From a virus (Duplodnaviria; Heunggongvirae; Uroviricota; Caudoviricetes): a stretch of 12,038 nucleotides of DNA. Every line of letters begins with the position of its first letter. Position 1 is the stretch's first letter. Under the pieces are notes generated by a model. The model was not told where the DNA came from and searched no databases. It saw only the letters and a program-made list of their open reading frames with translations. The translations under genes and the position numbers were made by a program. Shown here in pieces: positions 15 through 10,404 of the stretch. Location: IMG/VR virus record IMGVR_UViG_2568526312_000023; one strand, written 5' to 3'.

Positions 15-1676
15 TCACACCCCGCTAAATTCTTCCAGTTTCTGGCGGTGGCTGTCGCTTATATCAAAAGCAAAATCCTCATGCTCTGCCTGGAATGTAC
101 CAAACGCCATCAGCGCCGCCACGCTCGGGTCTATCTTGTTCGGTGATTTTTTCTTGTTCGGCTTGATATTGGCGTTCGCGTCACTCTGCATCACGACGTT
201 ACTCATCGACCAGGACAACACCGGATCGCCACGATGCACAATCACCCTGCGGTTAACAAAAACTTCGAACGATTTCGCCGCCGGACTGAATCTGAGGTAG
301 GTTTGCGGGAACGGCTCCACCTCAAAACCTGCCCCCTGTAATTGCGTTCTGAGATGCGTGGCGTTCCACGTATCAAAGCCCACCAGCCTGATATTAAATT
401 TCTCCGCGTCCTGCATGATGTCATCTCTGATCCGGTCGTAATCAATGCAGTCGCCAGGTGTTGTGCGTATCCAGCCTGCTTTAGCCCACTGACGATAGAC
501 AGCGCGGTTTTTATTGGCGGGGTTCTGTAGCTGGAACTCCGGCAGATAATGACGGGAAACCAGCATAATGGTTTTACCTACCGGAAAGGCATAGCACACG
601 CTGGAAATATCGCTTGTGGATGATAAATCCAGCCCCGCGTAACACTCCTGGCCGTGTAAATCTTCCTCCGTGAACGTTCCGGCACACTCAGCCCATGCGC
701 CGTTACCCATCCACGGGGTAGTCCCCTGACACCAGATATTAAATCGCTTTGTCATCATCTCCACCCACTGCGACGGAATACCCCGCGCTTTCTGGATGGT
801 TGAGGCCAGTTTTTCACGATCCACGGAAACATCAATATTAGGGTTCGCCTTTATCCACATCGCCGGATCATCAACCTCGTTTTCGTCGTCCAGTTCGTAA
901 ATCAGTACAAAAATTGAATCGTTAACCTCTTCGCCGTCCAGGATCTGGCAGCAATAATCATAGTGCTGCTTACAGGCTGAAACGACGTTGCTGCCTGATG
1001 TGGTAATGGCAAATAACAGCCCTTCGGGACGTGCGCCCATCCCCAGCTCAAGCGCGGAATAAACGCCGTTATCGGGGTGCAAGTGGTATTCGTCCACGAT
1101 GGAAAGGCTGGGGTTTGTTCCCTCGATGGTTGCCGCTTTTGCTGCCAGCGGCTTTAACAGGCTGTTGCTTTTCGGGTGTATCACCTTATGCGCCTGAATA
1201 TTCACCCGCCTGCGTAACGGTCGGGATAAAAGGCACATCTGACGCGCATCATCAAAGACGATCCGCGCCTGGTCACGGCTCACCGCTGCGGTGTAGATAT
1301 CCTGCTGACCGTTCTCCATAATCAGAAACCAGTTAGCCAGAATCGCGGCGGTCGTGGATTTCGCATTTTTGCGCGGCACTTCGATAAAGGCGCTCGTATA
1401 TTTGCGCCGTCCGGTGGCCTTAACCTTAAAGCCGAGGATGCACGCAAAGGCGAACTGCTGCCACGGCTCCAGCTCAATGGGTCTGCCACGCATCGGTCCT
1501 TTTACGTGCGGGCACACCCTGGAAAAGGCAATAAACCGCTCCACAACCTCACGATCGAACGTGTAAAGGGGGCTTTTAAGGTCCGAAAAGTACCGTTTAA
1601 CAGCCTGTTTTAACCGTTTACAGGCCGGAATTTTGCCCGTTTTTACGTCTTCTGCGTACTTATTCCAGGCGGTCAA
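15..1676 (-). CDS. terL: Terminase large subunit (TerL), HK97-like
   Basis: 553-aa ORF. N-terminal region resembles TerL ATPase domains (FIEVPRKNAKST Walker-A-like P-loop). Probable TTG start at 1674-1676 preceded by AGAGGA Shine-Dalgarno, overlapping the terS 3' end by 17 nt. Stop TGA at 15-17. Confidence 0.88.
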   Translation of the reverse strand: MTAWNKYAEDVKTGKIPACKRLKQAVKRYFSDLKSPLYTFDREVVERFIAFSRVCPHVKGPMRGRPIELEPWQQFAFACILGFKVKATGRRKYTSAFIEVPRKNAKSTTAAILANWFLIMENGQQDIYTAAVSRDQARIVFDDARQMCLLSRPLRRRVNIQAHKVIHPKSNSLLKPLAAKAATIEGTNPSLSIVDEYHLHPDNGVYSALELGMGARPEGLLFAITTSGSNVVSACKQHYDYCCQILDGEEVNDSIFVLIYELDDENEVDDPAMWIKANPNIDVSVDREKLASTIQKARGIPSQWVEMMTKRFNIWCQGTTPWMGNGAWAECAGTFTEEDLHGQECYAGLDLSSTSDISSVCYAFPVGKTIMLVSRHYLPEFQLQNPANKNRAVYRQWAKAGWIRTTPGDCIDYDRIRDDIMQDAEKFNIRLVGFDTWNATHLRTQLQGAGFEVEPFPQTYLRFSPAAKSFEVFVNRRVIVHRGDPVLSWSMSNVVMQSDANANIKPNKKKSPNKIDPSVAALMAFGTFQAEHEDFAFDISDSHRQKLEEFSGV

Positions 1677-2016
1677 GCTCGTCCTCTTCTTCTGTTTCCG
1701 GTGGATTTTTACGGCGGCTTATCGGGTCAAAACCGAGCAAGGAGGCCATTTTTATCATCACTCTTTCCGCGTCGGATTTCGCGCTTAATGCGGGGTTTCT
1801 GCTCTCTCCGCCCTGACTGTTAACAATGCTGAACCCGCGCGCCGCAAGGTCTGCGACGGCTTTCCGGTATATCGAGTAATTGACGCAATACAGTTCCAGA
1901 TTACTCCAGTCGGCGGGAGTCAGGTCACCCCGTTCCGCAAGCTGCCGCGATTTTTCCCGCCACTGCTTCACGGCGATATCATCCAGGTAGGCGGGGGCTT
2001 TCGGTGGTCTTGCCAT
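1660..2016 (-). CDS. terS: Terminase small subunit, P27 family
   Basis: 118 aa. The motif LTPADWSNLELYCVNYSIYRKA...GESRNPALSAKSDAERVMIKMASLLGFDP matches the phage P27-type TerS pattern as I recall it. ATG at 2014-2016 with a weak SD. Overlaps the terL start. Confidence 0.8.
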   Translation of the reverse strand: MARPPKAPAYLDDIAVKQWREKSRQLAERGDLTPADWSNLELYCVNYSIYRKAVADLAARGFSIVNSQGGESRNPALSAKSDAERVMIKMASLLGFDPISRRKNPPETEEEDELDRLE

Positions 2017-2139
2017 GCTTATTTTTTCGCCAGATTATTTTTCAAAAAATTCCCGTGCATAAAAATTTGAGGAGGCGTTCGGTTCTGGGCGGGGTCGGGT
2101 TCGTCCTGAAAACTCCCCCCACCCCGTCCGGCTGCCTCA

Positions 2140-2313
2140 TCAGCGATTGCGGAAACATTCCATAACCTCGCGGTCACGGTCGTTTAATCGCGTCGCTGTG
2201 ATGCGTTCTGCGCGTCCTGATGCTTTATCTTTATGCCCTGCTTCCTGTGCCTTCCATGCGTCACGCTGCCTTATAAGTCCACGGATAAGGCGGTTTTGTT
2301 CCCGCTCATTCAT
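2140..2313 (-). CDS. Hypothetical small basic protein (57 aa) in the HNH-terS gap
   Basis: In-frame ATG at 2311-2313 (alternative ATG at 2320-2322) within the 138-aa track ORF. Translation MNEREQNRLIRGLIRQRDAWKAQEAGHKDKASGRAERITATRLNDRDREVMECFRNR is charged and helix-like. Weak RBS. Start overlaps the HNH 3' end. Confidence 0.25.
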   Translation of the reverse strand: MNEREQNRLIRGLIRQRDAWKAQEAGHKDKASGRAERITATRLNDRDREVMECFRNR

Positions 2314-2746
2314 CAGCGCCATACATCCAGTTATTGCGGTTAGCGCCCCGTTCTTCCTCCTCACGGAATCCACCCGCAGCACGCTTGTTTTTTGTGGACG
2401 GATCAAGCCATTTCGTTTTCTGGTTATGACACGCCTGGCACAATGGCTGATGATTCCACTCAGGCCAGAAGAGAACATCATTACCGCCATCGATTGGGAT
2501 AATGTGATCCACCACCACGGCGGGCGTGTATATTCCTTTTTCCAGGCAATGCGCACATAACGGGTTTTTACTCAGATACATGGCGCGGTATTTCTCCCAC
2601 TGCCTCGTATACCCTCGCTCCCTGCTGCTGCCTCTCCGGCTGTCCTGCTGCTGGCGTGCGCTGCGTCTGTGCTCCTCACACTTGCCGGACTTCACGCGCC
2701 TGTTGCAGCCTGGTTCTGTACATCGTCTTAATGGTTGCCACGGCAT
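2306..2746 (-). CDS. HNH endonuclease (packaging-associated)
   Basis: 146 aa. N-terminal Cys cluster (CTEPGCNRRVKSGKCEEH) plus HNH core (GYTRQWEKYRAMYLSKNPLCAHCLEKG...VDHIIP...WNHQPLCQACHN). Sits immediately upstream of terS/terL, as in HK97-like cos packaging systems. ATG at 2744-2746 overlaps the upstream stop (TGATG). Confidence 0.85.
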   Translation of the reverse strand: MPWQPLRRCTEPGCNRRVKSGKCEEHRRSARQQQDSRRGSSRERGYTRQWEKYRAMYLSKNPLCAHCLEKGIYTPAVVVDHIIPIDGGNDVLFWPEWNHQPLCQACHNQKTKWLDPSTKNKRAAGGFREEEERGANRNNWMYGADE

Positions 2747-3039
2747 CAGTACACCCCCACATCACGGTAAGCCGTCCAGAGTGCGCCAATCGTCATGGGT
2801 ACGTGTGTTTTTGCGTTATCCGCGACAATCTGGCGATTTTCATACAGGTGAGCGATAAACATCATGCAGCCAATCTTTATGGCTGGCGTGAACTCCAGCC
2901 CGTCATCAAAGCGCCTGCCTATGTGTATCTGGCACGCCTCAAGCGATGCGGCAATGTATCCGCTGATTAACTGGTCTTCATCGTCGCCATCGATGCGGCA
3001 ATGGAGTTTCACTTCTTCCAGGGTGATAAGTTCTGTCAT
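2746..3039 (-). CDS. Head-tail connector protein, gp6-like
   Basis: 97 aa. N-terminus ITLEEVKLHCRIDGDDEDQLISGYIAASLEACQIHIGRRF resembles the gp6-like head-tail connector family pattern. ATGA overlap with the upstream gene. Confidence 0.72.
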   Translation of the reverse strand: MTELITLEEVKLHCRIDGDDEDQLISGYIAASLEACQIHIGRRFDDGLEFTPAIKIGCMMFIAHLYENRQIVADNAKTHVPMTIGALWTAYRDVGVY

Positions 3040-3374
3040 TTTTCCGCGCCCTCACTACAAAGAATTTCAAGGCGTGTCCTGGCGGCATCTGGCAGCGGTT
3101 GCCCGATGATATTCAGTACACGCCCCGCCAGCGGCCCCGTATTGACCTTTATCCGACTGGTGGCGTTGATGTCCTTCCGGTAGCGTATCCATATCCTTAC
3201 AGTTCCAGTCGCCAGCTCTGCACCTGATGAAATGGCCTCCTTGCTGCTGATCATGTTCACGCTTGCCCAGAGTGTGTGACCGTCCACCCACGTTTCGAGT
3301 ATTTCGCCCGTCATGGCTCTGGTCTGTTTCAGGGTCTGAATCGTTACCCTGTCACGCAGTCGCCCTATGTTCAT
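3036..3374 (-). CDS. Head closure / head-tail joining protein
   Basis: RDRVTIQ...W..LWASV...IWIRYRKDI...RI pattern typical of HK97 gp9-type head-tail joining proteins. Preferred start is ATG at 3372-3374 (ATGA overlap with the portal stop, AGGGAG upstream). The track ORF extends to 3416 with an alternative ATG. Confidence 0.72.
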   Translation of the reverse strand: MNIGRLRDRVTIQTLKQTRAMTGEILETWVDGHTLWASVNMISSKEAISSGAELATGTVRIWIRYRKDINATSRIKVNTGPLAGRVLNIIGQPLPDAARTRLEILCSEGAEK

Positions 3375-4582
3375 TCCGGTTTTTCTCCCTCGCTGATTTT
3401 TACTTCCTGTTTCCATGCCTGGCTGAACTCATCACCACCATCACGCGGTGACAGTCCTTCACGTTCGCGGGCTTCGTTCGGACACATAACGCCGGATTTG
3501 ATGCCGCGCTCATAGGTGGCAAAGCGTTCGCCAGGTGTGGCCCGTAACAGGTCCGCGCTGTCAAACTCCACCTGATACCGGATACCAGGTACAGGCGAGG
3601 CCACCAGCAGGGCGTTTTTTATCTGCTGCTCAAAGTTCGCCAGCCACGGGCGCATCGTCATGGTGAGAAATGCGCGGCTTGCCTCGCTGAAATTGCTGTA
3701 GGTGCTGTTGCTGTATTCCTGCAAAAAAATCGGCGAGACGTTGAACATTCGGGCGATGTCTTCAATGGTGAAGCGACGGGAGGCCAGCCATTCAGCATCC
3801 TGATTACTCATGCCCAGCTGCTGATAGCTCATACCCCCTTCAAGGATGGGCGTTTTTCCGGCGTTTCTGGCCCCTTTGTAGCGTTCCAGTGCGGCTAATG
3901 CCTGTTTGCCCTTCACGCCGTCCAGCCATTCGCCTGACGTGATAACCCCTGCCGCCATCATGCCATCACGCATCACGCTCGCGCCGTGGCGTTGTTGGGC
4001 CAGCCCAAGCCCCAGCGATTCGCGGCAAATGGTTACAGGTGAGCGCCCCATAAAACCGTCATCCGTGGAGTAACGAAGGTGGAGAACCTCCCACGGTAAA
4101 TAGTTGCGGGTGTTTCCGGTGTAAGCGTCAGTGATGCAGTAGCGCCAGTTGTGTTCTCCTGTCTGCTCCACGTTCACCGACTGCGGCGGGTAAGGATGTA
4201 AAGCCGCCGGAAAACCATCACGCCCCCACTGAATCACCGCGTAAGCATTACCGTTTAACAGGCAGTGGCGGATCATCATTCGCTTAAACTGGTAGGGAGT
4301 CTGCCACGCGTTCGGGCGCTCGTTGAGGATGTGATCGACCGGATGAGAATCAAGCCACTCTCGGGCCTCCTTCCCCTTCTCATTGCGTACCAGGTACAGG
4401 TAACACGGCATGGTAGCCACCGCCTCAGAGATGACCGTGACGGCGTTCATGACGGCGGGCAGTGATTCCGCTGTCCCCGATGATACGTACTCACCCGCCC
4501 CCGTGTTCGATGTGCCAGCCAGCGCCATAAACTCATCAAGCGTCATGCTGCGCTGCTCTTTTTTTCTTCTGAAAGGCCACAT
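3371..4582 (-). CDS. Portal protein, HK97 family
   Basis: 403 aa. Contains ESLPAVMNAVTVISEAVATMPCYLY and RRFTIEDIARMFNVSPIFLQ, which I recognise as HK97-type portal signatures. ATG at 4580-4582 preceded by GGGGGTG SD. Confidence 0.88.
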   Translation of the reverse strand: MWPFRRKKEQRSMTLDEFMALAGTSNTGAGEYVSSGTAESLPAVMNAVTVISEAVATMPCYLYLVRNEKGKEAREWLDSHPVDHILNERPNAWQTPYQFKRMMIRHCLLNGNAYAVIQWGRDGFPAALHPYPPQSVNVEQTGEHNWRYCITDAYTGNTRNYLPWEVLHLRYSTDDGFMGRSPVTICRESLGLGLAQQRHGASVMRDGMMAAGVITSGEWLDGVKGKQALAALERYKGARNAGKTPILEGGMSYQQLGMSNQDAEWLASRRFTIEDIARMFNVSPIFLQEYSNSTYSNFSEASRAFLTMTMRPWLANFEQQIKNALLVASPVPGIRYQVEFDSADLLRATPGERFATYERGIKSGVMCPNEAREREGLSPRDGGDEFSQAWKQEVKISEGEKPE

Positions 4583-4583
4583 A

Positions 4584-5141
4584 TCACACCCCCGCTAAAT
4601 CCGCCCACCAGCGGCGATTATCCGCACGAGGCATTTTTTCAGGGTGCTGCTCATACAGGGAACGGCGGGCCAGCTCCACGCCGGAATCAGGGTAAGCCGG
4701 TACGGATGTCACGGTAATTTCGTACAGTTCCGCTATCAGTACAGTACGCACACATGGATCGACTGTCGTATCCCATACATCCTTACGGGAACGAAAGCCA
4801 AAGCTCATGCCCGAGATGTCACCACGTTTAACCAGTTCGATAACGTCCCGCCCTGTGCTGGTATCCGGTGGGATCAGTTCAAAACGTAACCCTGTGTCAT
4901 CCTCTTCCAGTCTCAGCGTACCGGAACGGGTGCGCCCCAGTAACATGCTGTGGTCATGCTCATACAGGCCGCGAACGTCATTACCCACCGCAAGCCATTC
5001 AGTAAACGCCCCCCGCTGGAATTTTTCGTAAAATTCGCCCCATAGCAGTTCTGAAAGGTTATCCCAGCGAACAACGTAGCCCGTAAGCGTGTTGCTGCCG
5101 CTGGTGGTGATTTCCGATGACCGGATTTCCATACTCATCAT
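4584..5141 (-). CDS. Prohead maturation protease, HK97 family
   Basis: 185 aa. GYVVRWDNLSE...GAFTEWL...GLYEHDHSMLLGRT...DTSTGRDVIELVKRGDISGMSFGF matches the HK97 prohead protease family pattern. ATG at 5139-5141 with AGGTGA SD. Confidence 0.88.
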   Translation of the reverse strand: MMSMEIRSSEITTSGSNTLTGYVVRWDNLSELLWGEFYEKFQRGAFTEWLAVGNDVRGLYEHDHSMLLGRTRSGTLRLEEDDTGLRFELIPPDTSTGRDVIELVKRGDISGMSFGFRSRKDVWDTTVDPCVRTVLIAELYEITVTSVPAYPDSGVELARRSLYEQHPEKMPRADNRRWWADLAGV

Positions 5142-5195: not shown

Positions 5196-6353
5196 TTAAT
5201 CGTCGTCCTGCGGCAGTTCCAGAATCTTTATAGCGTTCGAATCCACCACGCCACCGCCTAAATATTTCTGCGTGAAAATTTTGATAAAGCCCGGCTCTGT
5301 GAGGTTGTCCGGTCTGGTGCGAACACCTGTTTCGTGATCAACAATGTAGTAACCGCGTTTGAAGTCACCCAGGGCAATAACGTTATCAGGCATAAACTCC
5401 AGATATTCGACCGGAAGGCCCAGCAACGTATCAGGATCACCCGCCTGTAAACGGTCGCGCCAGATGTAATCACCGTTCGCGTTCTTCACCTTCTGGAGTT
5501 TTGCCGCCGTCGTGGAGTTAACCACCCAGACCGCGTTTTTGCGGTATTTTTTACGTAATGCAAATTTCAGGTCGATCAGCGGGTCCGCAGATGTCCACGC
5601 CAGAGATTCGGAAGGTTTAATTACCTGCAACGTACCAAAATCACGCTCTTTGTCGTTCTTCTCTGCACGGGGTACGGATAAAAAACCTTTTGCTTTTTTG
5701 TCACCGTCGCCCACAACCAGATCGCTTTCTTCGGTTTCCGTGAAGGTGTCGCCAATCTCGCCCGTCAGCCATGAAAGGATGTCCACATCGGAAAAATCCA
5801 CGATTTCCTGCGTGGTGCGCGGGTACGCATAGACCGGATACAGCTTAATGCTCACCTCGTTAATCTGCGGGGTGCTGGTCTGTTCGCGTGCCTTACCCTC
5901 TTCACCGTGGTTAACGGTCGCACCGCCAGCGGAAACAAGCTGCTTAAACTCGTTGCTGCTGATTTTCTTCACGGTACAGATGCGGCGCATGGTGGATTCA
6001 TCCGTCAGCATTCGCATGATTTCGGTGTTCAGTTCGGGGATAACGGTATAACCACCATCAGCGGGAACGCCTGTACTCAATGCGCGGGTTTCACCTGTCA
6101 GAATGTAGTGACGTAGTTCGGCGGGGTCAGTGGTCTGGCTGTTTTTGCCTGGTTTACTGCGCTCTTCGTCAGCAACGGCCTCAAGGCGGGAGATGTCTTT
6201 ATCGAGGGATTCAGCTTTAGCGCGTAATTCGTCAAATTTTGCGCCCTCAGCATCGTTAAGGCTGCGGTTTTCTTTTTCCGCGTTCTCCAGCATGTCGCGC
6301 ATCTGATTTTTAATGGCGGTTTTCTGCTGGCGTAATTCGATTATTCTCGGCAT
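5196..6353 (-). CDS. Major capsid protein, HK97 fold, with N-terminal coiled-coil delta (scaffold) domain
   Basis: About 385 aa from ATG at 6351-6353 (MPRIIELRQQK...). The first ~70 residues are a charged coiled-coil typical of a delta domain; the rest has HK97-like capsid character. The track ORF extends to a GTG at 6401, but that start would place a terminator-like hairpin inside the coding sequence. Confidence 0.88.
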   Translation of the reverse strand: MPRIIELRQQKTAIKNQMRDMLENAEKENRSLNDAEGAKFDELRAKAESLDKDISRLEAVADEERSKPGKNSQTTDPAELRHYILTGETRALSTGVPADGGYTVIPELNTEIMRMLTDESTMRRICTVKKISSNEFKQLVSAGGATVNHGEEGKAREQTSTPQINEVSIKLYPVYAYPRTTQEIVDFSDVDILSWLTGEIGDTFTETEESDLVVGDGDKKAKGFLSVPRAEKNDKERDFGTLQVIKPSESLAWTSADPLIDLKFALRKKYRKNAVWVVNSTTAAKLQKVKNANGDYIWRDRLQAGDPDTLLGLPVEYLEFMPDNVIALGDFKRGYYIVDHETGVRTRPDNLTEPGFIKIFTQKYLGGGVVDSNAIKILELPQDDD

Positions 6354-6390
6354 AAAAAAAGTCCTGAAGTTAAGTAAGGAACTCCAGGAC
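6354..6390 (-). terminator. Intrinsic-terminator-like hairpin abutting the capsid start codon
   Basis: Minus-strand RNA reads GUCCUGGAGUU-CCUUACUU-AACUUCAGGAC followed by UUUUUUU then AUG. The 11-bp stem has one G-U pair and an 8-nt loop. The capsid SD (AGGAC) lies in the 3' arm of the stem. Confidence 0.5.
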
Positions 6391-6442
6391 GCGGCAAACA
6401 CTCAACCGTTTTTCATAAGGAAATCAGCAATCGCACCGATCG

Positions 6443-6640: not shown

Positions 6641-6913
6641 TTATCTGTCCTGGTAATTTCGCCATATTTCATCACCAGCACCATCCATACCCATTTCGGC
6701 ATAAGTGCGATCGACCGCCTTTTTCAGGTCTCCGTAATTATCCGGCGGCTCCGGTGGCCTCTGTGCCTTCCTGGAACATTCCAGCCGTCGCATCGTAACC
6801 TGATGCCGTTCCTTGTCTGTCTCCACCAGTTGCATGACTTCACCCCATCGCGCCGACGCTCTCCGGTAAAAGCCTTTCGCCTCCAGTTCTTCCGCTATGC
6901 GGTCATGTACCAT
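6641..6913 (-). CDS. PerC-family-like small transcriptional activator (putative late-gene activator)
   Basis: 90 aa from ATG at 6911-6913 (GGGGTGGGGA SD). N-terminal DRIAEELEAKGFYRRASARWGEVMQ resembles the PerC/Pch family motif (..LE.KG.WRRAA.RW..) as I recall it. Located directly upstream of the head operon leader. Confidence 0.55.
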   Translation of the reverse strand: MVHDRIAEELEAKGFYRRASARWGEVMQLVETDKERHQVTMRRLECSRKAQRPPEPPDNYGDLKKAVDRTYAEMGMDGAGDEIWRNYQDR

Positions 6914-6925
6914 CGTCCCCACCCC

Positions 6926-7336
6926 TCAGAACGGAATATCATCACCGTAAGGGTCATCGCCTCCCGCTGGTGGCTGATTACCCTGTGTGCCTGTGGTCTT
7001 GCGTCGGCTCCCACCAGGACGTGCCGCACGGGCACTGATTACGCTGTCTGCAATAACCTGATAACCCTGCCGCGTTTCCCCGTTCTGTCCGGTCCACTGG
7101 CTGACCTGCATCGTGCCGGATACGCTGGCAACGTCGCCTTTTTGATGTTTAGCCAGGAAGTCGGCCTGCTTACCAAATGCGATGACCGATAGCCATAACG
7201 TCGCCTGTCCATCCTGTGCCTGGCTGCATGGCAGCGATACCGCCATACGCGCCAGCGTCATCGGTGTACCCTTGCTGGTCTGTTTTACCTGCGGGTCGTC
7301 CACCAGCCGCCCGTAAGCTGCAATTTGTGCTGTCAT
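6926..7336 (-). CDS. ssb: Single-stranded DNA-binding protein (SSB-like)
   Basis: 136 aa. Gly/Pro-rich linker and an acidic C-terminal tip ending DDPYGDDIPF, matching the canonical SSB C-terminal D-D-D-I-P-F tail. N-terminal region compatible with an OB fold. ATG at 7334-7336 with GAGGTG SD. Confidence 0.75.
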   Translation of the reverse strand: MTAQIAAYGRLVDDPQVKQTSKGTPMTLARMAVSLPCSQAQDGQATLWLSVIAFGKQADFLAKHQKGDVASVSGTMQVSQWTGQNGETRQGYQVIADSVISARAARPGGSRRKTTGTQGNQPPAGGDDPYGDDIPF

Positions 7337-7345
7337 ATTGCCACC

Positions 7346-7651
7346 TCAGTGAAGCGATCCGGCGTTATTCTTTTTCATCTCTTCCATCATTTTTTCAGTG
7401 AGCATTACGCACTGAAAACCCATGTTTTTGATGTCTACGGGTTTCATGCCTTTGTCAGTGGATATCACAGGCAGAATATCCTGATACACATCGCGGTCAG
7501 GGTAACTAAGCACACAAAGCGCCCATGATGCCACGGGTGAGGATCCTTCGTCTGTTTCAACCCACCAGCCTGGTGTAGCTGCGCTTATTTGCTGAATCGT
7601 GATCCGTCCGTTGTGCTTGTAAAGTTTTTCACCAAATTTTGGTTCGCTCAT
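7346..7651 (-). CDS. Hypothetical protein (101 aa)
   Basis: ORF with ATG at 7649-7651 forming an ATGA overlap with the upstream gene stop, in operon context. No motif recognised. Confidence 0.5.
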   Translation of the reverse strand: MSEPKFGEKLYKHNGRITIQQISAATPGWWVETDEGSSPVASWALCVLSYPDRDVYQDILPVISTDKGMKPVDIKNMGFQCVMLTEKMMEEMKKNNAGSLH

Positions 7652-7899
7652 GATTTCAACTCTCCGGTTTTAACGTTGATGGTTGTTACCTGTTCCGCTT
7701 CGGCAATCTCCCGTTCTGTCAACGTGGCAAAGTTTGCCGCTGCTGTGGTCATGAATGCGCTTATCAGGTCGGGATGTTCCTTCGCGTATCCTTCCCCTAC
7801 GTGTCGGTCTATCGTTCTGATTGCCACCTTTAAGGCCAGCTCTGTTATATCTAACGCTTTATATTTCGGCTCTGTTCTGTCTCTGCGTGTTCTGGTCAT
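7648..7899 (-). CDS. Hypothetical protein (83 aa)
   Basis: Preferred ATG at 7897-7899 with a strong GAGGTG SD 6 nt upstream. The track ORF extends to 7932 into the AT-rich/iteron region. No motif recognised. Confidence 0.55.
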   Translation of the reverse strand: MTRTRRDRTEPKYKALDITELALKVAIRTIDRHVGEGYAKEHPDLISAFMTTAAANFATLTEREIAEAEQVTTINVKTGELKS

Positions 7900-7932
7900 T
7901 TGCCACCTCAATTTATATATATATAGAAACAT

Positions 7933-8250
7933 GTGCGGGTTATGCGGGTTATTGGGTTATCTTAGCGTGCTAACCATTTTTTACCCTTTTATATCAGCAT
8001 GTTGCAAAACACCCTGTTTATTATTTGCTCACCACGTAACCCGCAAAACGCTCAAAATAACCCGCAAACGGGGTTTTTTCTGCGGGTTACGCATGACTGT
8101 CCGGTGTTACTTCAGTTATTCGCCTGCGGGTTATAATCGTGCTTTTGCGGGTTATAAATGCCCTTTTGCGGGTTACGTGCGGGTTATTGATTTCCTTTAT
8201 ATTCATGCACTTAATACACTTATACACAGGATAACCCGCATAACCCGCAA
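7933..8250. repeat. Iteron array, putative replication origin
   Basis: At least 11 copies of the 9-10 bp unit TGCGGGTTA(T/C) in both orientations. Forward copies at 7934, 7943, 8081, 8125, 8146, 8167, 8178; reverse copies (ATAACCCGCA) at 8037, 8057, 8231, 8241. Some pairs are spaced about 10 or 20-21 bp. They flank AT-rich tracts (7960-8030, 8190-8230) immediately downstream of the primase gene. Confidence 0.7.
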
Positions 8251-8271
8251 TTTTTTTCCTCACACAGGGGA

Positions 8272-10404
8272 TTAATCTTCATCATCAGGCTGGAACATCA
8301 GCACGTAAAAAACATGCTGCTTACCCCCAATCTTGCCCAGCGCCTTTTTTTTGTATCGGCGATCGCTTCCCTTCTCCAGCATTCCGGCAGCATCCAGGGC
8401 ACGCGCAAAATGCGCCGGATTAAATCCCTTCGCTATCTCACTCTCAAACACGTGCGGGAACGTGTAATAGCGCATCTCGTCATCTTCGTTGCGAATGCTC
8501 CCTTTTCTGTATCCGGCAAGCTCTTTAATCGGTAAATCACGCTCATCTGTATTGGGGTACGGAAGGTAGCGGCTAAACCCAAACGACGACAAAAACGCCT
8601 CAGCCTGTTCAACCATCTGTTTAAATTCCCTGTTACCCGTGCCGAACTCCTTCACCCAGGCATTAAAGTTATGCTGTATCGCGTCGCGGCATTCCTGCAC
8701 GACCCAGCCAGTTACATGACCGGAAAGCACAAGCGCGGCCTCCAGTATGGCGAAACGTTCACCCACGCGGTGGACCTGCTCGCCGTAACTCTCCGGTATC
8801 AGGTTGCGCCACCGTTCGCGGCATTCCCTTACCGTGTCCTTTGCCTCCTGCTGGTGGCCTGCCAGCCATTTAACCCACTCACGACCCGCCGCCCCGTGAT
8901 TTGCTGTCCAGGCATCCTTTAACGCGTCAGCATGTTCCTTACCGTTGCTGTATTCGTGAAATTTCGTGGCTTTTTCCATCGGAACGTTAAGCAGTCGGAC
9001 AAGCTGCCCCGCCTTAACTTTTATCCCCTCACTTTTGAGGAATGTCTCAACGTCCATTTCTCCGGTGCTGATTGCCACCGTTCGCCAGTGTTTGATCTCC
9101 CTGTTGCCGCCATCCTTCGCCCCCTGCAATTTCCCTGAACCGTTAAACAGCGTATAAGCAGACGTTGACACTTCCCGCGCATTTCCGGCCTGGCCTATCT
9201 CATCCAGTGGTAAAAGCCCGTCATTATGGGCCTCGGCCTCATTGGCAATACCTAACGCCGTGCCGTACCAGGTCAGCCGCTGCGCGTCCGGCTCTCCCCA
9301 TAAACTTGATGCGATGTTCTGCGTGGTGGTCTTACCTGCCGATGACTGTTCGAAAAGATGCACCCCGAAGCCGTCAGCACCCACAAGGCCAATTAAAGGC
9401 GCTGCCAGTGACGTTGCCACACCCAGTATCATTGAGGCATTACCGCCAGCCAGCCGCGCCACGCTGTCGCGCCAGCCATCCGCCGTGCCCGCCACGGAAT
9501 AACCGTTAATCGCGGCGCTTTTTCCGGTAAACAGGATCGGTTTTTCAGATTCACCAATGATCGAACCGTCCGGCATGATGTACGCGCCAAAATGCCAGCC
9601 CGTTGTTGTGCTTAACTGCCATTCCTCATGGCTTCCGCTTAACTGCATCCAGTCCGCCAGGATTGCCCTGTATTTGCCGTTGGTTGTCACGTTCAGCCCG
9701 TGATCTTTAAGTAACCGCCAGCCGTCACGGTCGCCGATACCACCACACGGGATCGCCATTGTGATGACTTCATGGTTTGCGGTTTTTTTCCAGCGCATCA
9801 CGCGGTAATGCTCTTTACCGATCGTCCCCGTTCCCAGTAGTTCAAGCGGAGAACATAACCACGTCTCAGGCCGGATAATTTCGCCTGACTGCTTATCCAC
9901 TTTGGGCGTTACCCAGAAAACACCATCGGCGCGACTTTCAACGCGTGGCTTTAATTCGTCATCGCTATGGCTTCCGGTATCTTTTTTCTTTACCGGAAAC
10001 TCAATAACCAGACCATCAGAAAGATTCTGCCGCTCACGGGCCAGATATTCGCGCCAGTTCTCCACCTTCTGACCGTGCATACCCTCAGGATAAAAATTTG
10101 CATCCTGTACACCAGCCGCCGCCAGCTTTTGACCAATCGCCTTGATCATTACTGGTGCAAGATGTCCGGCCCTGAATATGCGCACGGATTTTCTGCCTTC
10201 CGGCACAATTTGCAGCTTATCCAGTTCTGATAACTGCTGCTCCCCAAGCCACACAGGAGGCACATTATCGCCGGATGCGGGGCCGTCCTGCTCCTGCCAC
10301 TGTTTTGCATGTGCCCACGCATCACTACCCGCGAAAATAATCACCTCTGTGTCTTTGTGTTTTATTCCGCGTGGCTGTTTTTTTACGTTCGGTGCCAGTT
10401 TCAT
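8272..10404 (-). CDS. Primase/helicase-type replication initiator (satellite/P4-like pri-rep)
   Basis: 710 aa. Central P-loop-like motif GVHLFEQSSAGKTTTQ. Large size and position directly upstream of the iteron origin. ATG at 10402-10404 with ATGA overlap to the upstream ORF. Confidence 0.75.
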   Translation of the reverse strand: MKLAPNVKKQPRGIKHKDTEVIIFAGSDAWAHAKQWQEQDGPASGDNVPPVWLGEQQLSELDKLQIVPEGRKSVRIFRAGHLAPVMIKAIGQKLAAAGVQDANFYPEGMHGQKVENWREYLARERQNLSDGLVIEFPVKKKDTGSHSDDELKPRVESRADGVFWVTPKVDKQSGEIIRPETWLCSPLELLGTGTIGKEHYRVMRWKKTANHEVITMAIPCGGIGDRDGWRLLKDHGLNVTTNGKYRAILADWMQLSGSHEEWQLSTTTGWHFGAYIMPDGSIIGESEKPILFTGKSAAINGYSVAGTADGWRDSVARLAGGNASMILGVATSLAAPLIGLVGADGFGVHLFEQSSAGKTTTQNIASSLWGEPDAQRLTWYGTALGIANEAEAHNDGLLPLDEIGQAGNAREVSTSAYTLFNGSGKLQGAKDGGNREIKHWRTVAISTGEMDVETFLKSEGIKVKAGQLVRLLNVPMEKATKFHEYSNGKEHADALKDAWTANHGAAGREWVKWLAGHQQEAKDTVRECRERWRNLIPESYGEQVHRVGERFAILEAALVLSGHVTGWVVQECRDAIQHNFNAWVKEFGTGNREFKQMVEQAEAFLSSFGFSRYLPYPNTDERDLPIKELAGYRKGSIRNEDDEMRYYTFPHVFESEIAKGFNPAHFARALDAAGMLEKGSDRRYKKKALGKIGGKQHVFYVLMFQPDDED

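Follow-up and report, generated by a model that had tools for sequence, protein, structure and literature searches.

A predicted HNH-dependent cos site of the HK97/SfV type upstream of terS in a capsid-forming PICI of Escherichia coli

The interval between the HNH endonuclease gene and the small terminase gene (terS) of the window (the whole stretch of 12,038 nucleotides that was analysed) raises the question of whether it holds the cos site at which the DNA is cut for packaging, and at which bases the cut would fall. A preliminary description had proposed a cos region here, with nicking at symmetric G and C runs and an AT-rich stretch that could bind IHF, as in lambda and HK97. Our analysis agreed with the location of the region: the interval stands in register with mapped cos sites, the encoded TerL and HNH proteins have homologues in the phages concerned and a contig of a related element breaks at this place. 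We consider it very probable that 2033-2125 is the cos site of a capsid-forming PICI (cf-PICI) and that it is of the HK97/SfV type, which is HNH dependent and has 10-nt 3' cohesive ends. The cut was predicted from the homologous register to lie ~10-30 bases from where it had been placed.

To identify the element, gene content was assigned and the stretch 1900-2420 was compared with complete E. coli genomes. Every long ORF of the window is on the minus strand, and the order along that strand is replication genes, capsid, protease, portal, head closure, connector, HNH, a small ORF, terS and terL (Table 1). The stretch was present in 381 of 5426 genomes and was chromosomal in all of them. The best match was 99.6% identical and lies in an element of ~14.3 kb between roxA and phoQ; this copy has a tyrosine integrase at the element's end and tail and lysis genes are absent from it, and the window stops in or close to the integrase end of the element. 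The copy in O157:H7 genomes was 95.6% identical over 1900-2420. The published criteria for cf-PICIs, of which EcCIEDL933 is the prototype, are a size of 10-18 kb, no tail module and no lysis genes, and the Pfam content, the size and the missing tail and lysis genes of our element all agreed with them. Because the gene order and the tail-less, lysis-less element of ~14.3 kb match this definition, the window is an EcCIEDL933-like cf-PICI of E. coli, a phage satellite and not a phage. Helper induction and transfer via helper tails are experimental for EcCIEDL933 and KpCIDSM30104 only, and the HK97-like phages HK106 and HK446 are helpers of EcCIEDL933 (cf-PICI preprints; Alqurainy et al. 2022; He et al. 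2025).

The replication module of the element is mosaic. The window carries a 710-aa DUF927 primase-like protein in 7346-10404 (minus strand), and the otherwise near-identical element of strain FDAARGOS_1283, the closest relative, has a RepA-family helicase at 17791-19644 instead. The PerC-family activator gene is intact in the window, and an internal stop makes its orthologue in this closest relative a pseudogene. In pathogenic E. coli the LEE island is under the control of PerC/Pch proteins.

Table 1. Genes of the window and predicted elements of the cos region, in minus-strand order. Offsets count from the predicted first packaged base (+1); conservation is in bits per column over the cf-PICI stack described in the text.
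Feature	Coordinates	Strand	Offset	Evidence or conservation
DUF927 primase-like protein	8272-10404	-		replication/regulation module
DUF4222		-		replication/regulation module
SSB	6926-7336	-		replication/regulation module
PerC-family regulator	6641-6922	-		Pfam E = 1e-43
Major capsid protein	5196-6401	-		Pfam assignments
Prohead protease	4584-5141	-		Pfam assignments
Portal	3371-4582	-		Pfam assignments
Head closure protein	3036-3416	-		Pfam assignments
Head-tail connector	2746-3039	-		Pfam assignments
HNH endonuclease, packaging accessory nuclease	2306-2746	-		Pfam HNH PF01844 E = 9e-8; phrog_144 E = 8e-43
Small conserved gene, 60 aa	2140-2322	-		PGAP CDS WP_024166058 in 99.6%-identical DNA; phrog_3173 E = 5e-34
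Small-ORF stop to G-block				0.89
G-block GGGGTGGGGGGAG (C-run of the plus strand in the preliminary description)	2113-2125	-	-54..-42	1.80
Conserved TTTTCAGGAC, directly after the G-block	2103-2112	-	-41..-32	1.82
Variable 21-nt spacer with CCCGACCCCGCCC (G-run 2087-2099, minus strand)	2082-2102	-	-31..-11	1.25; 32 variants; lowest in the cos core
Predicted cosN, 10-nt 3' cohesive end 5'-CGAACGCCTC-3'	2081->2072	-		homologous register; 1.55
CTCAAATTTTTAT, predicted first packaged bases (virion DNA left end)	2059-2071	-	+1..+13	near-invariant
GCACGGGAATTTTTT, candidate TerS recognition site (cosB-equivalent)	2044-2058	-	+14..+28	1.84
GAAAAATAATC, conserved A-rich continuation	2033-2043	-	+29..+39	1.60
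Variable leader directly before the terS start codon	2017-2032	-		0.94; indels
terS, small terminase, P27 family	1660-2016	-		Pfam Terminase_4 E = 1e-23; TIGR01558 above cut-off
terL, large terminase (ATPase + nuclease)	15-1676	-		Pfam TerL_ATPase, TerL_nuclease; PF03354 + PF20441

The interval between HNH and terS had been described as a gap of 289 bp, but 60% of it is coding, and the true intergenic region is 2017-2139 (123 bp). The conserved 60-aa gene in this interval overlaps the end of HNH with its start and stops 14 nt before the G-block. About 76 of 80 relatives keep this frame open; in the divergent lineage related to the Klebsiella element Ant (described below) it encodes 50 aa with the C-terminal ERDRE..ECFRNR kept and the differences synonymous. 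In mid-gene the substitution pattern was close to neutral, and strong purifying selection was rejected as a description of it (non-synonymous:synonymous 52:16; 10, 9 and 12 variable sites by codon position). We called the ORF coding because it is maintained, its termini are conserved and it has a PHROG match. In HK97 and SfV no gene is annotated between HNH and cos. The small gene might be the 'hypothetical gene 1792' of EcCIEDL933, mutation of which severely lowers transfer.

To place the cut, the record ends of HK97, SfV, ST64B and D3 were joined and set beside the minus strand of the window and six other cf-PICIs. HK97 is cleaved at the start of its GenBank record with 10-nt 3' overhangs, and cleavage is stimulated by the HNH protein gp74 (PMC11331095). 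SfI and SfV have the same cos, and when the virion DNA of SfI was sequenced by run-off a gap of 10 nt remained, TGCCCGCCCC (PMC3636060); a gap and not an overlap means that the 5' ends are recessed and that the overhang is 3'. A 13-nt G-block, 31 nt and a decamer followed one another without gaps in HK97, SfV, ST64B, the window and the six other cf-PICIs. HK97 reads GCAGGGGGGGGGA, 31 nt and CGCCGCCAAA, which is the last 10 nt of the record, with GTTTGAATTTAACGCTAACCCGATTTTTTT after the cut; SfV reads GGGGAGGGGCGGG, 31 nt and TGCCCGCCCC, with ATCGTTTTTTTATACCCGCGAAAAATG after the cut; and D3 reads GGGGTGGGGCGGG, 31 nt and GCGCCCCCA, the last 9 nt of its record. The window reads GGGGTGGGGGGAG (2125->2113), 31 nt and CGAACGCCTC (2081->2072), with CTCAAATTTTTATGCACGGGAATTTTTTGAAAAATAATC after the cut, so that its decamer takes the same ungapped position as the SfI overhang, the last 10 nt of HK97 and the last 9 of D3. 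Variants of the decamer in cf-PICIs include CACCCGCCCC, CGCCCGCCCC and CGACCGCCTC, and the first two, found at this position in other cf-PICIs, are nearer still to SfI. The 13 bases that would follow the cut matched CTCGAATTTTTAT of ST64B at 12 of 13 positions.

The strength of the register was measured by dinucleotide shuffling, in which every shuffle was allowed the best of 39 offsets. In-register identity of the window was 45/99 with SfV, which 4 of 2000 shuffles reached, and 47/99 with ST64B, which 1 of 2000 reached, in alignments that were anchored on the G-block and so favour the register. HK97 alone gave 40/99, which was not significant (131 of 2000 shuffles reached it). At the protein level TerL was homologous over its full length to that of D3 (33% identity, E = 4e-91), SfV (31%, E = 2e-83) and HK97 (27%, E = 3e-47), and the HNH protein to that of HK97 (38%, E = 1e-18), SfV (37%, E = 2e-15) and D3 (40%, E = 1e-6). 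TerS was 36% identical to the TerS of SfV (E = 4e-21) and had no sequence similarity to HK97 gp1.

This register predicts nicks at 2072/2071 on the minus strand and at 2081/2082 on the plus strand, give or take a few nucleotides, and its basis is homology at 40-47% identity in a region that is short and biased in composition. We put an overhang of exactly 2072-2081 at somewhat better than an even chance. We infer the exact nick positions, the polarity of the overhang, the assignment of proteins to blocks and any role of the G-block from these comparisons. On the far side of the decamer from terS, the G-block would be a conserved upstream cos element in a cosQ-like position, with a putative function. 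On the terS side, 2044-2058 consists of a short GC element followed by an A/T tract and may be bound by TerS. The minimal TerS site of HK97 is at +15..+29, CTAACCCGATTTTTT (PMC11331095), and GCACGGGAATTTTTT at +14..+28 resembles both this site and ACCCGCGAAAAAT of SfV in position and form; since the TerS of the window is unrelated to gp1, the analogy with HK97 is limited to position and form.

Conservation was assessed in a gapless stack of 126 unique cf-PICI sequences. The G-block, TTTTCAGGAC and +1..+39 were conserved, the spacer and the leader were variable and the spacing was fixed, with a distance from G-block to +1 of exactly 54 nt in 109 of the 126 sequences. In Ant-like cf-PICIs the 21-nt spacer differs in sequence and keeps its length. 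Half of the loci had been retrieved with +1..+19 as the pattern and conservation there is therefore partly by construction; the same block was equally invariant in 60 unique sequences found by way of TerS and in the Ant-like loci, and within it +1..+13 was near-invariant in both. Some loci appeared to be mosaic. Four of them (L019, L030, L032 and L062) carry the small-ORF/spacer variant of one lineage next to a +1..terS variant from a different one, and L062 has a window-type spacer with an L047-type leader, which suggests recombination breakpoints at or near cos in some cf-PICIs.

A virion-derived contig provided independent, if indirect, evidence for the predicted ends. LR881103.1 ("vB_KppS-Ant") is a linear contig of 16.5 kb with cf-PICI gene order. 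Its source was lysates of K. pneumoniae DSM 30104, with whose genome it shares >99% identity, and the reads came from a Nextera XT library (PMC8006926). KpCIDSM30104, the cf-PICI of DSM 30104, is efficient at filling its own capsids with its DNA, and the virion DNA of cf-PICIs is joined into concatemers by cohesive ends. The contig ends in ...GGTTTTCAGGAC, the last base of the conserved TTTTCAGGAC block (window 2103), and restarts at +39, 22 nt before terS. Compared with integrated relatives 69 nt are missing, from -31 to +38, and the predicted decamer lies inside this hole. In libraries made by tagmentation the ends of linear molecules are poorly represented, and real ends at this place would leave such a hole around the predicted cut. 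The hole is asymmetric, with 21 nt and 38 nt of duplex missing, and may have another cause in the assembly. The record, named 'Escherichia phage vB_KppS-Ant', is the cf-PICI KpCIDSM30104 of K. pneumoniae DSM 30104; the Ant paper describes a filamentous ssDNA prophage, and one Ant gene is annotated as a tape measure protein. At least 120 IMG/VR loci contain the +1 motif and none of them has it at a contig end; most are prophage calls from isolate genomes, and the result carries no information on the cut.

Other readings of the same interval were weighed against this layout. The preliminary description took the symmetric G/C tract at 2087-2126 for cosN, with lambda-like nicks around ~2107 and an IHF-bent cosB in the AT-rich stretch, and the motifs it relied on are real. 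GGGCGGGGTCGGG lies at 2087-2099 and CCCCCCACCCCG at 2115-2126, CGGGGT (2090-2095) and ACCCCG (2121-2126) are a perfect inverted 6-mer, and the contrast in composition is as described (72.5% GC in 2087-2126 and 73% AT in 2017-2068, with 51.8% GC in the whole window). The inverted pair belongs to a 13-nt inverted repeat, 2087-2099 / 2117-2129, that is complementary at 11 of 13 positions, and the cosN of lambda has partial two-fold symmetry. The symmetry was nevertheless no more than expected by chance, as the 289 bp contain 10 inverted pairs of at least 6 nt, and the hairpin folded no better than shuffles (RNA fold z = -1.43; 16 of 200 shuffles folded equally well). A hairpin or terminator reading of the runs was rejected on the same fold and on the lack of a predicted terminator. 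The G-run arm at 2087-2099 falls in the least conserved segment and is missing from Ant-like cf-PICIs, unlike the C-run arm, which is strongly conserved; the 11/13 repeat was neither conserved nor better than shuffles, and a conserved two-fold symmetric nick site of the lambda type was not found. The mapped ends of SfI, HK97 and D3 lie 31 nt downstream of the G-block and do not adjoin it. The Ant contig does have its right end at 2103, inside the symmetric tract, but as it resumes only 69 nt later 2103 itself is not a mapped end. The IHF consensus WATCAANNNNTTR had no match with up to one mismatch in 2017-2139 (4 matches in the whole window against 9.5 expected), and Pfam identified no Nu1/gpA-type terminase in the window, where TerS is Terminase_4/P27 and TerL is PF03354 + PF20441. 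We therefore consider this lambda-like reading as a whole very unlikely. The homologous decamer is at 2072-2081, on the terS side of the non-conserved G-run, the C-run is not half of a nicking site but a conserved upstream element 32-44 nt before the predicted cut, and for the AT-rich stretch the terminase recognition side (+1..+39) is a better reading than an IHF site. The analogy with lambda finds no support, for want of both a Nu1/gpA terminase and an IHF consensus in the region.

The conserved blocks lie directly upstream of terS and could instead be expression signals for terS and terL, with cos elsewhere or with headful packaging that starts at a pac site within terS. An influence of the A/T-rich leader on translation is conceivable, and P27-family TerS proteins also occur in pac phages. 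A search of 1900-2450 gave neither a sigma-70-like promoter on the gene strand nor an intrinsic terminator, and the RNA fold was not significant. The sole promoter-like match was on the opposite strand and was rejected as a terS promoter. The same blocks occur at the mapped DNA ends of SfI, HK97 and D3. Headful packaging is disfavoured by the HNH/TerL type, by the cohesive ends of cf-PICI DNA and by the HNH gene adjoining terS, a hallmark of the HNH-type cos system, and we regard expression signals with or without headful packaging as highly improbable. A cos site at this location with a displaced cut, that is with nicks within CTCAAATTTTT or in the C-rich spacer CCCGACCCCGCCC, or with an overhang of 9-11 nt, deserves more weight and is quite plausible, though less likely than not. 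Overhang length does vary, as D3 has 9 nt and the two ends of PhiS63 repeat 11 nt, and CGAACGCCTC is less C-rich than the SfI decamer, which the C-rich run of the spacer resembles. Against a displaced cut, the spacing from the G-block and the T-run was gap-free across ten sequences and other cf-PICIs have CACCCGCCCC or CGCCCGCCCC exactly at the decamer position.

With the HNH-dependent layout and the cut at the decamer, a packaging mechanism can be proposed. The satellite's P27-family TerS would recognise the GC element and A/T tract at ~+14..+39 (2033-2058). TerL and HNH would introduce staggered nicks flanking the GC-rich decamer CGAACGCCTC and leave 3' overhangs, and packaging into the small capsid would proceed from +1 (2071) through terS and terL and around the roughly 14-kb element to the next cos. 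At termination the G-block, 32-44 bp inside the cut, may help in the manner of cosQ of lambda. Packaging of satellite and helper is reported to be mutually exclusive (cf-PICI preprint), and a decamer and +1 region unlike those of HK97 fit this report.

Set beside known systems, the site appears by gene context, homology and DNA register to be an ordinary HNH-dependent cos of the HK97/SfV class. SfI/SfV and ST64B share with the window the gene order HNH, cos, P27-family terS and terL, as well as the layout of G-block, 31 nt, GC-rich decamer, CTCRAATTTTTAT, GC element and A tract. Compared with SfI/SfV, the window has a decamer identical at 6 of 10 positions, an unrelated spacer sequence, TTTTCAGGAC instead of the TCAAATC that follows the other G-block, an additional small gene separating HNH from cos and a TerS of 118 aa without the roughly 45-aa N-terminal extension of the SfV protein, and it resides on a roughly 14-kb satellite. 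HK97 has homologous HNH and TerL proteins, the G-block, 31 nt and decamer at its record end and a GC element with A/T tract at +14..+30, where its TerS binds; it differs in its unrelated TerS and in the 319 nt between HNH and the record end. EcCIEDL933 and KpCIDSM30104 are the same type of element with the same gene order, and KpCIDSM30104 (Ant) has a TerS 83% identical to that of the window and the same cos blocks. The cos of lambda is arranged as cosQ-cosN-cosB with an IHF site, I1, and a 12-nt 5' overhang. The window follows lambda in its logic, with an upstream element, a GC-rich nick site and recognition DNA ahead of the small terminase gene, and differs in terminase family, in HNH dependence and in the missing IHF consensus; 10-nt 3' overhangs are expected here rather than lambda's 12-nt 5' overhangs. 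In the cf-PICI literature examined the cos is assumed and we found no published experimental map of it, which makes the base-level prediction new. The location is as expected for an HNH/terS/terL module, and the prediction is a useful annotation and not a surprise.

Six distant cos systems of the HNH type, in addition to the cf-PICIs, also have a G-block whose 3' edge lies ~41 nt (31 + 10) before the top-strand nick. These are HK97, SfV, ST64B, D3 (31 + 9), Clostridium PhiS63 (30 + 11) and S. thermophilus DT1 (GTGGGG, 31 + 10). TerL and HNH are homologous across these phages and TerS is not, and no description of the G-block was found in the literature examined on these systems. We tentatively raise the possibility, which remains rather doubtful, that a G-block ~41 bp (four helical turns) before the top-strand nick is a universal, undescribed element of HNH-dependent 3' cos sites, read by the conserved TerL/HNH/portal machinery and not by the variable TerS, and fixing the place of the cut as a ruler or as a termination signal equivalent to cosQ. 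If true, the cf-PICI version GGGGTGGGGGNNG-TTTTCAGGAC together with the element's own decamer and TerS site would explain the exclusivity of satellite and helper packaging. A G-block that recurs at a fixed distance from the nick in distant phages is the one observation here that may justify experiments on cut-site choice by HK97-type terminases.

The cf-PICIs are widespread satellites. Their own small capsids receive no DNA but theirs, and the tails are taken from phages, in some cases across genus boundaries. A cos site at base resolution would explain this specificity for their own DNA. With such a site any plasmid or cargo could be made transducible by cf-PICI particles, and virome reads could be assigned to satellites by their ends.
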